NCBI GenBank assembly: GCA_018238545.1
Contig: JABCTC010000001.1
Location: forward strand, 1-64,000
DNA length: 64,000 bases
Source of the DNA: Candidatus Heimdallarchaeota archaeon
GTDB taxonomy: Archaea > Asgardarchaeota > Heimdallarchaeia > Heimdallarchaeales > Heimdallarchaeaceae
Direction of reading: 5' to 3'
Part shown: piece after piece, positions 43,972-48,546 of the stretch
Numbering within the stretch: the first letter of the stretch is position 1
Layout of the letters: each line of letters opens with the position of its first letter
Notes under the pieces: model-generated
Told to the model about the DNA's origin: nothing
Seen by the model: the letters and a program-made list of their open reading frames with translations, nothing else
Databases searched by the model: none
Position numbers and translations under genes: made by a program

Positions 43972-44238
43972 TCATCGATAAACTTGCTTTCGATGAGCTA
44001 TTTTGATAATAACTACTACACATTCGTCTGTGTAAATTTTGTAAAGAATTCGATAGTCACCAATTCTTGTTCTGTAGATATTTTCAACACCCTTTATTTT
44101 TTTGGAAGAAATTAGAAAAGGATTCTTAAAATTTGGTAAAAAGTTTTTGATTTGTTGTTTTGTTTTCTTAGGTAATTTCTCTAATTCCTTTGATGAAACA
44201 GGTAACAGGAAAACTTCATAGATCTGGCTACCTGCCAT
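43972..44238 (-). CDS. relE: RelE/ParE-family toxin
   Basis: KELEKLP...KKIKG...YRTRIGDYRILY...AHRKQVY. Confidence 0.92.
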   Translation of the reverse strand: MAGSQIYEVFLLPVSSKELEKLPKKTKQQIKNFLPNFKNPFLISSKKIKGVENIYRTRIGDYRILYKIYTDECVVVIIKIAHRKQVYR

Positions 44239-44438
44239 TATTCCACCTTGATTAATCTCTCAAAATCCTTTTGTTTAATAATTTTATCAGCTTGACCAAT
44301 TCTCTCTTTTTCCTCCTCAGAAAGATATTCTTCTTCAACTAATAGTAATAATAGCTCCTCAATTCTATCAATCTTCTTCTTAAGAAAACTGATTTTATCT
44401 ATAAGAATTTCCACTTTATCTACAGTCATTGGTGACAC
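44238..44438 (-). CDS. Putative antitoxin of the adjacent RelE
   Basis: Small acidic coiled-coil ORF whose stop overlaps the relE start. Confidence 0.75.
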   Translation of the reverse strand: MSPMTVDKVEILIDKISFLKKKIDRIEELLLLLVEEEYLSEEEKERIGQADKIIKQKDFERLIKVE

Positions 44439-44526
44439 GTTTATAACTCTACAGAAGTATTTAATGTTTATTATTTGTTAAGAAGTTCATATTGGTAAAG
44501 CAAAAAAGAGCGTATCTATGAAAATA

Positions 44527-44558
44527 AAGGAAGAATCAACCTCCCAAGTTGAAAAAAA
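44527..44558. repeat. Module-boundary palindromic motif, copy A
   Basis: AAGGAAGAA-TCAAC-CTCCCAA-GTTGA-AAAAAA; core 44536-44552. Confidence 0.75.
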
Positions 44559-44649
44559 TTAATAGACATTGGAGACTGTTACAATTATTAATCTTATATT
44601 AGGTTAACTTTATTAACTCAGTTATATAAGTATACTTAAGTGAAAAAAT

Positions 44650-45033
44650 ATGTCTGTACTCATAAAAGAAGTTGACAAAGAACTTTATGCAAAATTCAAA
44701 TCAAAAGCAGCTCTAAAGGGTTTGCGTATAAATGAAGCTTTTGCTGAAGCAATGATTAAATGGTTAGCTGAAGAGCAAGAAAAAGGTGAGAAGGATTTGA
44801 TGAGACAACAGAATAATGCAACGTATAGACGAACGCTACCAAATTTAATGAAAGAATATGAAGGCAAATGGATAGTTATTTCTGAAGGTTTAATAATTGG
44901 GATTTTCGAAAACCGAGACGAAGCGATAAAAGCTGTTAAAATCAACAAGCTTGAAAATAAGAATAATATAGTATCACCTATTCTTAAAGAAGGTCGAAGA
45001 ACAGAATTTGGTTTCAGGAGGAAAGATTCTTGA
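44650..45033 (+). CDS. RHH-like N-terminus fused to a DUF5678-like domain
   Basis: IKEVDKELYAKFKSKAA...EAM; L.KEYEGKWIVISEG.IIG. Confidence 0.65.
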   Translation: MSVLIKEVDKELYAKFKSKAALKGLRINEAFAEAMIKWLAEEQEKGEKDLMRQQNNATYRRTLPNLMKEYEGKWIVISEGLIIGIFENRDEAIKAVKINKLENKNNIVSPILKEGRRTEFGFRRKDS

Positions 45034-45446
45034 AGAATATCTTTGATTACAAACCGTCATCAAGTTCAAGTGAACTAGCTCCATATGTTGATTTATTAAT
45101 AAGCGATCCTCTTGGTTCAAAGTCAATAGAATGTAGTGCAATGATAGATACTGGATACGATGGGGAAATTGTTGTTCCAGTAAAGCTATATGATGACCTA
45201 AATTTATCCGCTTTTGAATATAGTGAAAATCTATTTGCTAAAGCTGAAACAATTACAGGAGAGAAATTTGTTTTAAGAACAGCAAGTGGTTCTGTAACTG
45301 TAAAGGGTATAGATGTTTCAATCGTGACAACAATTGATACTCATCGATCTTTAACTGAAACTCTAATTGGAAGGAAGTTTCTGGAATCATTTGATGTGTT
45401 ACTTAAAGGAAAAGATAAAAAAATAGAATTAACCTTCATTGAATGA
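45030..45446 (+). CDS. Clan AA (retropepsin-like) aspartic protease
   Basis: AMIDTGYDG catalytic motif and LIGRKFL; 4-bp overlap with the upstream gene. Confidence 0.85.
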   Translation: MKNIFDYKPSSSSSELAPYVDLLISDPLGSKSIECSAMIDTGYDGEIVVPVKLYDDLNLSAFEYSENLFAKAETITGEKFVLRTASGSVTVKGIDVSIVTTIDTHRSLTETLIGRKFLESFDVLLKGKDKKIELTFIE

Positions 45447-45469
45447 TTATAAAAGATAGACAATCAAGA

Positions 45470-45741
45470 TCATGGTTTTTTGTAAGCGTCTTTCCTCCAT
45501 CCTATAAACTAAATAAGAATCTTGCTCTCATTCCATGAAACGGTATAGACAACTCTGATATTTCCAAAACGAGCGCGAAAAGTATTTGTAAAGGTTTTGA
45601 GTTTAACAATGTCATATTTCTTGCTTGGAACAGCATGATCCTTGATGACAAGAAGAAAATCGTGGATTACCGTTTTTTGAGATTTGTCTAAACCTTAAAT
45701 GAATTTTAAAGCAGACTTTTTATTGAAATTTCAAAAGTCAA
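45470..45741 (-). pseudogene. relE: RelE-family toxin pseudogene
   Basis: Manual translation: MTFEISI/frameshift/KSALKFI*GLDKSQK...YDIVKLKTFTNTFRARFGNIRVVYTV...ILI*FIGWRKDAYKKP*. Its TTG start overlaps the stop of 45738..45929. Not in the ORF track. Confidence 0.8.
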
Positions 45742-45929
45742 CTTGTTAGCTCCTTAAATAAAATTTCCTCGCTAACAGTGTCTTCATTGTTTTTAATTAC
45801 TGAAATTTCATCAGAATAAGCTTTTTCTTCTTCAGTGATAAGCAAGTGAAGAATAGTATTTGAAATAGTAAAAAGCTCTTCTAATCTGTCTTTTATTTTT
45901 TGAATTTCTTGTTCTAATGAAGATGTCAT
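45738..45929 (-). CDS. Putative antitoxin of the dead RelE
   Basis: 63-aa acidic coiled-coil ORF translationally coupled to the relE pseudogene. Confidence 0.7.
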   Translation of the reverse strand: MTSSLEQEIQKIKDRLEELFTISNTILHLLITEEEKAYSDEISVIKNNEDTVSEEILFKELTS

Positions 45930-46000
45930 GACAATTTCACTAATTAATTGTTGGTTTCAATCTTATTAAAGACTATTAATCGATATCAAAGAAGAAATAG

Positions 46001-46036
46001 AAGAAAAGAAAATTCAACCTCCATAACGTTGATAGA
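46001..46036. repeat. Module-boundary palindromic motif, copy B
   Basis: AAGAAAAGAAAAT-TCAAC-CTCCATAAC-GTTGA-TAGA; core 46014-46032. Confidence 0.7.
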
Positions 46037-46059
46037 ATTAGATGTTAAGTTCTTATTTG

Positions 46060-46941: not shown

Positions 46942-47010
46942 GTTTCTCAAGAGAATATACATATATTCATACATAATAGTTTCTATTAGTTTTACAAATC
47001 AAACAAAGTT

Positions 47011-47044
47011 AAAAAAATCAATCAACCTCCCTAATTGAAAAAAG
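47011..47044. repeat. Module-boundary palindromic motif, copy C
   Basis: AAAAAAATCAA-TCAAC-CTCCCTA-ATTGA-AAAAAG; core 47022-47038. Confidence 0.7.
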
Positions 47045-47106
47045 TGAAAAGGTTCGTAGATCCCTATTTACTATCATTGTTTAAGATATTTTATGATGTT
47101 AAGCAA

Positions 47107-47427
47107 TTACTTTGATGAGAATCTCCCACAGATTTTGCTCTTTATTTCTTCACAAACTATCTTTTTCTTTTCCTTCTTTAGCTTGAATAATTTGCGAACA
47201 ATAATACTTTTGCCAACTGTGAACAAATAATTTGTTTTAATTATACTCTCTCTTACAGCTCCTTCATCAACAGATAAACTAATACCTTGCATTTTCAGAT
47301 TGCTCGTAATCCCTGCTACTATGCTATTGTCGTGCTCCTCAAAAAGAACAAGAGCAGGTCTTCTCTTTGCAATACTTTGATCAGTGAATGTAATCTCTGT
47401 TAGAATAACATCCCCAAAATCATACAT
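47107..47427 (-). CDS. mazF: PemK/MazF-family toxin
   Basis: GDVILTEITFTDQSIAKRRPALVL...AGITSN; the ATG at 47427 overlaps the upstream stop. Confidence 0.88.
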   Translation of the reverse strand: MYDFGDVILTEITFTDQSIAKRRPALVLFEEHDNSIVAGITSNLKMQGISLSVDEGAVRESIIKTNYLFTVGKSIIVRKLFKLKKEKKKIVCEEIKSKICGRFSSK

Positions 47428-47749
47428 CGTTCCATACTTCGTCTTCTTCATTATCCCAGAGTTCATTCATCTTTTCTTGTTGAGTTGAATCAAGATTAAA
47501 TAGATTATCTACTTTCACAGTTTCTTCATTCGAATTAATCGCAACAATCTCATCAGGAAAAGATTCTTCTTCAGGAATAAGTAGTTCCTTTGTTTTGATA
47601 GTTTCATCAGCTTGAGCAATCCTCTTCTTTTCATCTTCAGAAAGGTAATCCTCTTCTACAAGTAGTAATAATAGTTCCTCGATTCGATTAATCTTCTTCT
47701 CAAGTGAAGAGATTTTATTGACTATAAGCTCTATTTTATCACTAATCAT
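47420..47749 (-). CDS. Chimeric antitoxin-like protein upstream of mazF
   Basis: Probable start MISDK at 47749. The N-terminal part matches 44238..44438, the middle matches the tail of 45738..45929, and it ends ELWDNEEDEVWNDV. Confidence 0.7.
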   Translation of the reverse strand: MISDKIELIVNKISSLEKKINRIEELLLLLVEEDYLSEDEKKRIAQADETIKTKELLIPEEESFPDEIVAINSNEETVKVDNLFNLDSTQQEKMNELWDNEEDEVWNDV

Positions 47750-47832
47750 TAAAGTCAGATTATAGATTGAACAAAAATATTTAATCTTTATCATCAAAAA
47801 GAAATCTAATCTTTTGTAAATAATAAATATAG

Positions 47833-47860
47833 AGAAAAGAAAAACCAACCTTTAAGATGT
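47833..47860. repeat. Degenerate module-boundary motif, copy D (left half only)
   Basis: AGAAAAGAAAAACCAACCT matches the left half of copies B and E; the right arm is absent. Confidence 0.4.
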
Positions 47861-47972
47861 CCTCATAAAAATAAGACACATTTATTCAGTAGAACAGGTA
47901 TTATTCATGACGATACTGGAATAAAAATCAAACAGAATTATTTTTATATTTCGTAAGACTTGTTGACATATA

Positions 47973-48206
47973 ATGAGTATTTTTAATTACAAGGTTTTGT
48001 TAAGAAAGGAACCAGAAGGAGGATACACAGTCATAGTTCCCACTCTTCCTGGTTGTATAACATATGGTGAGGATATCGATAATGCAAAAAAGATGGCAAA
48101 AGAAGCTATAGAGATTTACTTAGACAGTTTGCGAGAACACGGAGAGGAAATACCCACAGAAGATGAAGTTCTTGAATATACTGTAATGGTTGAGTTAAAT
48201 GCCTAA
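47973..48206 (+). CDS. hicB: HicB-family antitoxin
   Basis: EGGYTVIVPTLPGCITYGE...AKEAI. Confidence 0.92.
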   Translation: MSIFNYKVLLRKEPEGGYTVIVPTLPGCITYGEDIDNAKKMAKEAIEIYLDSLREHGEEIPTEDEVLEYTVMVELNA

Positions 48207-48414
48207 ACTTCCTTCTCTAAATTCAGATAAAGTCATCAAAATACTCAAGAAAAATGGGTTTATATTGGATAGGACAAAAGGTAGTCATCGAATTTATTAC
48301 AATCCTAAAACTAAACGAAGAGCTGTTGTTCCGTATAAGAAAAAAGATTTACCTAAGGGGACATTGATGTCAATAATACGACAAGCAGGACTTGAAAAGG
48401 AAGACTTGTACTAG
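48199..48414 (+). CDS. hicA: HicA-family toxin
   Basis: KILKKNGF..RTKGSHRIY...VP...DLPKGTLMSIIRQAGL. Confidence 0.92.
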   Translation: MPKLPSLNSDKVIKILKKNGFILDRTKGSHRIYYNPKTKRRAVVPYKKKDLPKGTLMSIIRQAGLEKEDLY

Positions 48415-48510
48415 TTTCTTTGCTTATATGTGAAAGACATTATTATATTTCATGAAGTAGAATTACATTTTTTTCTCACAAATATTAACGAGGATAAAAC
48501 TAACTTAAAG

Positions 48511-48546
48511 AAAGAAAAGGAAATCAACCTCCCTTGGTTGAAAAAA
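48511..48546. repeat. Module-boundary palindromic motif, copy E (most perfect)
   Basis: AAAGAAAAGGAAA-TCAACC-TCCCTT-GGTTGA-AAAAA; core 48524-48541. Confidence 0.75.

Follow-up and report, generated by a model that had tools for sequence, protein, structure and literature searches.

How small gene modules enter, leave, and change places at one point of an archaeal chromosome is the question raised by a locus in a 64,000-nt stretch of Candidatus Heimdallarchaeota DNA (the window; positions refer to it unless another contig is named), in which unrelated toxin-antitoxin (TA) modules are separated by copies of a short, repeated motif. Among known organisms, Asgard archaea stand nearest to eukaryotes, and their gene uptake and shuffling are poorly understood. 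A preliminary description, made from the letters of the window, had regarded the motif as a palindromic site, possibly that of a system for cassette capture and shuffling. Here we find that, across 16 genomes belonging to a single Heimdallarchaeota genus, each genome has the motif at one chromosomal locus only: the 3′ flank of a gene for an EhpF-like adenylating enzyme (the anchor gene). All of its copies point the same way, they bound every module (cassette) of a variable array stretching away from the anchor gene, and they derive from a native site behind that gene; gains, losses, and reorderings of cassettes break inside the motif, and cassettes have passed between species. Recombination at the motif is well supported. 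Tentatively, and with a confidence just short of even, we read the motif as the joint of a chromosomal gene-cassette array worked by a site-specific recombinase that acts in trans.

Sequence and Conservation of the Motif

The core 9-mer TCAACCTCC occurs at 44536, 46014, 47022, and 48524 (copies A to D), each time exactly and on the + strand, in agreement with the preliminary description. The genome of the window (G000; 3.63 Mb, 34% G+C) contains just 19 exact matches to this 9-mer on both strands, and around the other 15 neither the purine tract nor the right arm nor the A-run is present. The copies were turned into a profile (nhmmer), which, scanned over the whole genome, matched the four sites (E 6e-7 to 5e-3), a decayed copy at 47827-47851, one extra site at C103:16709-16743, and no others. 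The decayed copy, earlier described as a half copy near 47845, consists of the purine tract and CCAACCT, with the right half gone (E 2.5 genome-wide, 0.12 within the locus set). Taken with the gene assignments given below, the pattern first described is genuine and well in excess of chance.

An alignment of 55 copies from this genome and its relatives defines a conserved, asymmetric unit of ∼40 nt: a polypurine tract (AAGAAAAGAAAAA) is followed by the block YCAACCTCCC, a less conserved right arm GGTTGA (TAAGGTTGA), and an A-run. Per position, conservation is 82-95% in the polypurine tract and 82-100% over the tract and CAACCTCCC together, compared with only 51-71% in the right arm, which is often wholly missing from degenerate copies. 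Conservation is highest on an invariant block of 9-10 nt, in the manner of the common core of att sites.

The palindrome, by which the site was first described, proved to be its weakest part. It spans 19-21 nt with a single stem of 5-8 bp (arms of 5-7 bp, spacers of 5-9 nt), and its predicted hairpins range from -1.8 to -7 kcal/mol (z -1.9 to +0.2). For the window copies the energies are -2 to -5 kcal/mol (z -0.7 to +0.2), a stability no better than that of shuffled sequence. The purine tract and the A-run are unable to pair, and the stem is without covariation: the arms hardly vary, the changes that do occur break pairs, and a right-arm G-to-A change is uncompensated.

These features bear on two known kinds of mobilization, the second of which had been raised in the preliminary description: a canonical integron array (a cluster of attC sites lacking integron-integrases, CALIN) and HUH mobilization of the IS200/IS605 type. 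Words resembling RYYYAAC and GTTRRRY stand on either side of the loop, attC integrons have been reported in ∼8% of Asgard genomes (Ghaly et al., 2022; PMC9668308), and a TnpB element at 42530-43893 adjoins the array. Yet a single-stem palindrome of 19-21 nt without L boxes, folding no better than shuffled sequence, does not suit an attC site, and, as detailed below, neither IntI nor a Y1 transposase was found above cut-off. The arrays of relatives are without TnpB. An origin by either route is extremely unlikely, and the earlier judgment that the site is too short for attC and unlike dif stands, given direct copies only and arms of 5-7 bp.

Some + strand open reading frames (ORFs) run into the adjoining motif copy (L022:5585-6292, with homologs in L026, L028, and L031; e.g., membrane proteins of ∼235 amino acids). 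In these ORFs the purine tract becomes a Lys/Arg-rich C-terminal tail, and the stop codon, TAA (or TGA), falls in or just after the loop; because they end inside the motif, the site supplies the C-termini of some cassette proteins. Two other roles were considered and rejected. Minus-strand GGAGGT, as a Shine-Dalgarno sequence for a small ORF, has no start codon at a usable distance, and an operator of paralogous antitoxins would suit copy A and the decayed copy only; RelE and VapBC paralogs on C103 are without the motif.

Distribution and Cargo of the Arrays

The motif was sought by a pattern search in 40 relatives, by profile scans of the fetched loci, and by a genus-wide pattern search. The last gave 45 matches, compared with 7 in the control, and nearly all lie on the contig of the anchor gene or on array fragments. 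Across the genus the motif keeps to one locus per genome, and not to the genome-wide occurrence by which the preliminary description would have recognized a plain terminator. In 17 loci, all 55 copies are co-oriented and none is reversed, while the genes between them face either direction (32 on the + strand, 27 on the - strand). The 38 cassettes measure 360-4690 nt, with a median of 927 nt.

The cargo consists mostly of TA pairs, namely three kinds of VapBC, MazEF, RelE, HepT/MntA, and HicAB. Zinc-ribbon membrane proteins, a TPR protein, a Ras-family GTPase, alpha/beta hydrolases, an APH-family kinase, a luciferase-like monooxygenase, and a nitrilase-family (CN hydrolase) protein make up other cargo. 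Minimal cassettes recur, including VapBC (∼730 nt), MazEF (∼700 nt), and HepT/MntA (∼1000 nt), and they do so in different company. With M for the motif, the order in genome G023 is M-MazEF-M-VapBC-M-VapBC′-M-anchor, and in genome G007 it is M-MazEF-M-VapBC-M-DUF5678/protease-M-anchor. The last cassette pairs an aspartic protease with a small protein labeled DUF5678 in the preliminary description; no Pfam or NCBIfam match bears out that label, which is kept here for brevity.

Outside the genus, the VapBC, DUF5678/protease, and MntA/HepT cassettes of a sister-genus genome (G041) carry the motif as single copies away from the anchor gene (L065, G041:C11, 6632-7365; L066, G041:C169, 4549-6400). 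The order in L066 (HepT/MntA, motif, DUF5678/protease) is that of the X7 contig described below. Among metagenome contigs at JGI only two loci were found: a short VapBC fragment and an array of the same architecture beside the anchor gene. A free element carrying the site was not found among the viral contigs of IMG/VR, none of which matches the core exactly.

Exchange at the Motif

Comparison of the locus across relatives, proposed in the preliminary description, revealed modules gained, lost, and reordered with breakpoints inside the motif. The MazEF cassette has HepT/MntA and HicBA as neighbors in the window, the anchor gene in G002, and VapBC in G007 and G023. Contigs of other metagenomes were also compared with the window, and only the parts with contig cover in X2, X3, X6, and X7 were interpreted. 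In one X7 contig of 5147 nt (depth 39), the DUF5678/dead-RelE cassette continues through the TCAACCTCC of copy B (46022) directly into the right arm of copy D (48541), a joint that omits three modules (HepT/MntA, MazEF, and HicBA). At the start of this contig, the region upstream of MntA (to 46994) is fused to the core of copy A (44534), so that in the X7 organism HepT/MntA flanks the DUF5678 cassette at its opposite end. A second, nearly identical X7 contig tracks the RelE cassette to 44544, right after TCAACCTCC, and then departs from the window, and an X6 contig joins 45998 to 48512. Taken together, the X6 and X7 joints confine the switch to about -3 to +7 of the core.

Exchange has also crossed species boundaries. 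Homology of the HepT/MntA cassette among G000, G009, and G002 begins and ends at the flanking motifs (copy C at one end), and HepT and MntA are 91% and 89% identical in nucleotides between G000 and G009, compared with 70% for the anchor genes. The X7 contig is a mosaic, with 95%, 88%, and 97% identity in successive segments. In G007 and G023, two internal sites are closer to the native site of another lineage than to their own, so units also cross from species to species, taking their site along.

The exact point of crossover within the motif was mapped with less clarity. Identity in the near-left and near-right halves of the site was 0.68 and 0.65 in 11 pairs sharing the left flank only, and 0.64 and 0.67 in 87 pairs sharing the right flank only, against backgrounds of 0.61 and 0.55; these trends are weak and not decisive. 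Single cases conflict, in that G at -2 goes with VapC (left) and TT at -2/-1 recurs with MazEF (right).

A separate feature of the X7 contig lies on the far side of the anchor gene, where 58 nt at 50571-50630, between the gene of a 234-amino acid membrane protein and the VapBC promoter, are swapped for 79 other letters. Identity shifts from 88 to 97% across this stretch; it resembles another exchange joint, with no recognizable motif copy.

The Anchor Gene and the Origin of the Copies

Three features of the locus were absent from the preliminary description: its anchoring at the 3′ end of the EhpF-like gene, the probable terminator role of copy D, and the derivation of internal copies from the native site. 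The anchor gene (48555-49715, - strand) encodes an enzyme with the motif GGTTGAPK and a clear match to EhpF structures (phmmer to PDB 3L2K, E 1.4e-12), despite having no Pfam or NCBIfam match at E 0.01. It is present in single copy in 15 of the 24 genomes of the genus. The native copy of the motif lies 10-25 nt behind its stop codon, a position occupied in 13 genomes besides G000, and is on average 78% identical across species, compared with 71% for the adjacent 150 coding nt. In the window the native site is copy D (48504-48555; nhmmer E 6.5e-7), directly 3′ of the anchor gene. Its minus strand reads as a T-run, a short hairpin, and a T/C tract, an arrangement called terminator-like, and copy D probably doubles as the terminator of the anchor gene.

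To the right of about one third of the internal copies, the sequence continues as a decayed version of the last anchor-gene codons. In G002, G001, and G007, internal copies match their own native site over ∼95-120 nt, the species-specific spacer included, and the duplicated stretch takes in 35-62 nt of anchor coding sequence. In the window, the alignment shows that a short piece of the stop region of the anchor gene (TTAATAGAC) persists in copy A. Judged from these alignments, the internal copies are duplications of the native site of their genome. A duplicated site together with the gene end is the footprint that a circular, one-site unit would leave on recombining with the resident copy.

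Integrase insertion, too, classically leaves direct repeats in which the 3′ end of the target gene is duplicated, and the cassettes could be decayed remnants of a larger integrative plasmid or virus that once had its own integrase aimed at the anchor 3′ end, of which TA modules and a few passengers survive. TA modules are typical survivors of such decay, and the tyrosine recombinases of the genus are sporadic and on small contigs, as those of mobile elements would be. Independent decay would not, however, yield the same minimal cassettes at different array positions, bounded exactly by the motif; nor was an integrase or a fragment of one found in the 17 loci, or the motif in the IMG/VR viral contigs. 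We regard this history as improbable.

Sister genera of the family indicate how the site arose. They keep the anchor gene (47-63% amino acid identity), followed by a purine tract that is T-rich on the gene strand and, in its sequence, resembles an ordinary archaeal terminator; beside the anchor gene these genera have neither the CAACCTCCC core nor an array. The tract is kept where the core is absent, from which we take the purine tract to be an old terminator; the core is an innovation accompanying the arrays.

Could the copies be merely terminators or insulators, selected behind modules, with the module differences unrelated to them? On the minus strand, the stop codons of HepT, MazF, and the anchor gene are followed, after 14-69 nt, by copies B, C, and D, all three of which read as T-run, hairpin, and T/C tract, with copy D called terminator-like. 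Against this, copy A and the decayed copy follow no minus-strand gene, and many copies in relatives follow + strand genes, for which the site has no T-run. The breakpoints coincide with the motif, and internal copies carry pieces of the anchor gene. The confinement of the copies to one locus per genome largely refutes this explanation, and we consider it highly unlikely.

Proposed Mechanism and the Search for a Recombinase

On our favored reading of a recombinase acting in trans, the system would work on small DNA units, each comprising one or a few genes and one copy of the site. Such a unit, presumably as a circular intermediate, would enter at a resident copy by a single crossover of the Campbell type, and every insertion would leave the site as a direct repeat on both sides, often with the 35-62 nt of the anchor 3′ end. 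Repeated rounds would build a head-to-tail array in which site orientation is fixed and gene orientation free, and the reverse reaction would remove cassettes or release them to move. TA cassettes would pile up because they penalize their own loss. The likely catalyst would be a site-specific recombinase encoded elsewhere, recognizing the purine tract and YCAACCTCCC and exchanging strands within or next to the block. The fuller proposition, that a non-IntI recombinase works in trans on an asymmetric site of ∼40 nt (the purine tract with CAACCTCCC) evolved from a gene terminator, and that the whole is an undescribed archaeal integron-analog capturing, excising, and reordering promoter-bearing cassettes in Heimdallarchaeota, is possible and is offered with more reserve. 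The arguments for a dedicated enzyme are the invariant block of 9-10 nt amid less conserved sequence, the crossovers mapping there, the survival of the block through decay, its link with the arrays, and the re-insertion of cassettes in new orders.

No such enzyme came to light next to its presumed substrate. No recombinase or integrase fragment was found in the 17 loci, inside or next to any array, or among 30 representative cassette proteins; an enzyme, if there is one, would have to work in trans. Tyrosine recombinases (PF00589) were found in only 11 of the genus's 24 genomes, and eight array-bearing metagenome-assembled genomes (MAGs) of 87-90% completeness yielded none; the MAGs as a whole are 72-92% complete, so absence is not proven. 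The recombinase listing proposed in the preliminary description did return two tyrosine recombinases in G000. Both are generic, lie on contigs of 2.5-2.8 kb, and score far below the cut-offs of the specialized families: 38 and 27 bits on TIGR02249 (IntI; cut-off 265) and 85 and 57 bits on NF040815 (XerA; cut-off 220). Mobilization by an ISDra2-type HUH enzyme, as suggested earlier, found no support, with no Y1 transposase above cut-off and a best PF01797 match of 19.6 bits that contains two stops.

Of seven serine recombinases in G000, four are of the IS607 type and adjoin TnpB. The other three are small (∼250 amino acids), comprise two paralogs that are not IS607-type (C88:39687-40430, C6:7230-7919, and C26:28946-29692; L057-L059), and belong to a family present in 27 of 29 genomes of the whole taxonomic family. 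Because that range includes genera without an array at the anchor gene, they have no specific link to the arrays. The detection of PF00589 enzymes, anything of XerA grade included, in only 11 of the 24 genomes bears separately on chromosome-dimer resolution in these archaea.

Several further observations weigh, with the missing recombinase, against a dedicated enzyme. An exact-protein look-up of HepT identified five other assemblies of the same species that share the cassette order of the window, which indicates slow turnover. No circular junction was seen, and the X7 joint that goes back to copy A could equally reflect another linear order. Because the copies were found with a core-centered profile, the conservation profile carries some bias. 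The anchor-gene remnant varies in length (35-62 nt), the arm spacing is not fixed (5-7-5, 6-6-6, and 5-9-5), and perfect identity among the four window copies extends over just 9-11 nt; these three features fit relics or homology-driven events as well as they fit a fixed att site.

The main rival is an explanation without any dedicated enzyme, in which host homologous or short-homology recombination acts on the repeats (40 to ∼110 nt, motif plus anchor-end remnant), loop-out circles re-enter at any repeat, and the core is kept by the terminator role of the native copy and by gene conversion. Sulfolobus and other archaea recombine with very short homologies. That no recombinase lies near the arrays, and that no tyrosine recombinase was found in most array-bearing genomes, would follow naturally, as would the variable right-hand ends of the duplications and the differing nucleotides at which the X6 and X7 joints fall. 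Lineage-specific features are shared within genomes (C at -1 in every copy of G011 and G001, the short loop in every copy of G004), and most internal sites match the native site of their own genome best. Yet the window copies, with 9-11 nt of perfect match and ∼70-80% identity over 40 nt, are a poor substrate for homologous recombination, and the purine tract and CAACCTCCC persist in decayed copies while the rest disappears. Nor does a terminator role account for the core, which is absent 3′ of the anchor gene in array-free sister genera despite their T-rich terminator tract; since these genera terminate without it, termination does not need the core. Reordering, moreover, needs re-insertion, beyond deletion. 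We hold this explanation to be credible if doubtful. The earlier proposal of a capture and shuffling system stands as to exchange at the motif and the lack of a recombinase in or beside the arrays, and falls short as to its site-specific nature over short-homology recombination.

Either outcome would be informative. What has been found is a genus-wide joint, defined at the level of nucleotides, where small gene units come, go, reorder, and cross species. A dedicated recombinase, should there be one, would represent a new site-specific system that might serve as a genetic tool in Asgard archaea. Should host recombination do the work unaided, the locus shows that an integron-like array can grow from a duplicated terminator. 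In both cases the site is short enough, and defined well enough, for direct testing.

Genes and Sites of the Array in the Window

The type II TA families named in the preliminary description (ParE/RelE, HepT with MntA, MazF, HicA with HicB, and PIN with VapB) all scored above Pfam cut-offs. Cassette 1 contains a RelE/ParE toxin (43972-44238, -; PF05016, E 1.9e-9) and its antitoxin (44238-44438, -), which has no Pfam match and is a paralog of the antitoxin at 47420-47752. Motif copy A (44515-44563, +; nhmmer E 2e-4) lies between divergent genes, as previously noted. Cassette 2 opens with a small protein (44650-45033, +), an ORF without a family match, that is the partner of a clan AA aspartic protease (45030-45446, +). 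The protease is supported by TIGR03698 just under its cut-off (E 9.3e-14, 51.6 bits versus 57.35) and by a match to Pfam gag-asp_proteas (E 3.4e-4), and the same gene pair is a motif-bounded cassette in G007 and G041. A dead RelE/ParE pseudogene follows (45470-45735, -), rightly recognized as such earlier: its translation has two in-frame stops, and it matches the RelE of G007 (blastp E 2.6e-9). The ORF upstream of it (45738-45929, -) is placed as its antitoxin.

Beyond copy B (45996-46045, +; nhmmer E 6e-7), cassette 3 comprises a HepT toxin (46060-46494, -; PF01934, E 1e-25) and an MntA-type nucleotidyltransferase antitoxin (46501-46974, -; PF18765, E 7e-12). Copy C, with an ATTGA variant of the right arm (47012-47053, +; nhmmer E 5e-3), separates it from cassette 4, a MazF/PemK toxin (47107-47466, -; PF02452, E 3e-7) and its antitoxin (47420-47752, -). 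The decayed copy (47827-47851, +) and copy A are equally placed relative to their paralogous antitoxins. Cassette 5, a HicB-HicA pair (47973-48414, +; PF15919, E 8e-14, and PF07927, E 2e-22), precedes copy D and the anchor gene, on the far side of which is a VapB-VapC pair (50684-51323, +; PIN/VapC at 50910-51323, PF01850, E 4e-13). This VapBC has no recognizable flanking motif, though the same pair is a motif-bounded cassette in relatives.

One antitoxin family without a Pfam match pairs with both RelE (44238-44438) and MazF (47420-47752), whose antitoxins cluster together, and 44266-44474 is 75% identical in nucleotides to 47586-47794, ∼40 nt of the promoter region included. This suggests that antitoxins have swapped partners across toxin families. 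The partner of the dead RelE (45738-45929) was not grouped with this family by clustering, contrary to the link drawn in the preliminary description.

Several neighboring features complete the picture. The insertion sequence (IS) that adjoins the array at 42530-43893 encodes TnpB only (Pfam OrfB_IS605 and a Cas12f1-like TNB domain), and its left end, near 43893, is repeated on at least eight contigs. On C103 (16198-16743; L038), a copy of this IS is cut off inside tnpB, 6 nt from a motif copy with a remnant of the anchor stop codon, and beside that copy lie genes that flank the array in G016; an IS-mediated rearrangement seems to have split the distal part of the G000 array off to C103. A luciferase-like monooxygenase is encoded at 51352-52200, 1.6 kb from the anchor gene; in G004 a member of this monooxygenase family forms a motif-bounded cassette of its own. 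An Rfam scan of 42000-52000 returned no relevant family.

Comparison with Known Systems

The mobile elements of closed Heimdallarchaeum genomes have been surveyed (PMC8813620); judged by its keyword content, that survey does not describe such an array. Among known systems, Xer-dif modules of Acinetobacter plasmids (PMC13141974; PMC6449649) are likewise small and often of the TA kind, are bounded by short sites, shuffle between replicons, and rely on a recombinase encoded elsewhere. Their pdif sites, in contrast, are of 28 bp (11-6-11) and alternate in orientation, whereas the Heimdallarchaeota sites are chromosomal direct repeats unlike dif, and a XerA-grade recombinase was undetected in most genomes of the genus, at the MAG completeness given above. 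Tandem integrative elements at the 3′ att sites of genes (tRNA-gene islands; archaeal elements, PMC6563490 and PMC7253208) resemble the arrays in their flanking direct repeats copying the target 3′ end and in the displaced remnants further out. The units here differ in measuring 0.4-4.7 kb, in being without an integrase, and in recurring as the same minimal units across positions and genomes.

For elements of the IS200/IS605 type, distinct subterminal hairpins would be expected at both ends; here each joint has one weak hairpin, and no Y1 (PF01797) was found above cut-off. Archaeal oligo-T and intrinsic-type terminators share with the native copy its place behind the anchor stop codon, T-run, hairpin, and T/C tract, and the T-rich tract of sister genera stands in that same place. 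Unlike them, the motif has a conserved sequence tied to one locus, recurs between modules irrespective of gene direction, and has a core that sister genera, which have no array there, lack at that place.

The closest resemblance is to integrons and CALIN, including the TA-rich superintegron of Vibrio. Tandem short cassettes, co-oriented sites, one fixed end, content and order that vary between relatives, enrichment in TA modules, and many arrays without a nearby recombinase are features common to both. An attC site, though, is an imperfect palindrome of 55-150 nt with paired R″/L″ and L′/R′ boxes and a single-stranded DNA fold, a description that the ∼40-nt, asymmetric Heimdallarchaeota site without R/L box pairs fails, and no IntI, with its IntI-specific extra domain, was found in the 17 arrays or in G000. 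Cassette genes here occur in both orientations with promoters of their own. The fixed end of an integron is attI; that of these arrays is the 3′ end or terminator of a metabolic gene, partly duplicated along with the site. With none of the integron's parts present, the outcome in these archaea is nonetheless integron-like.

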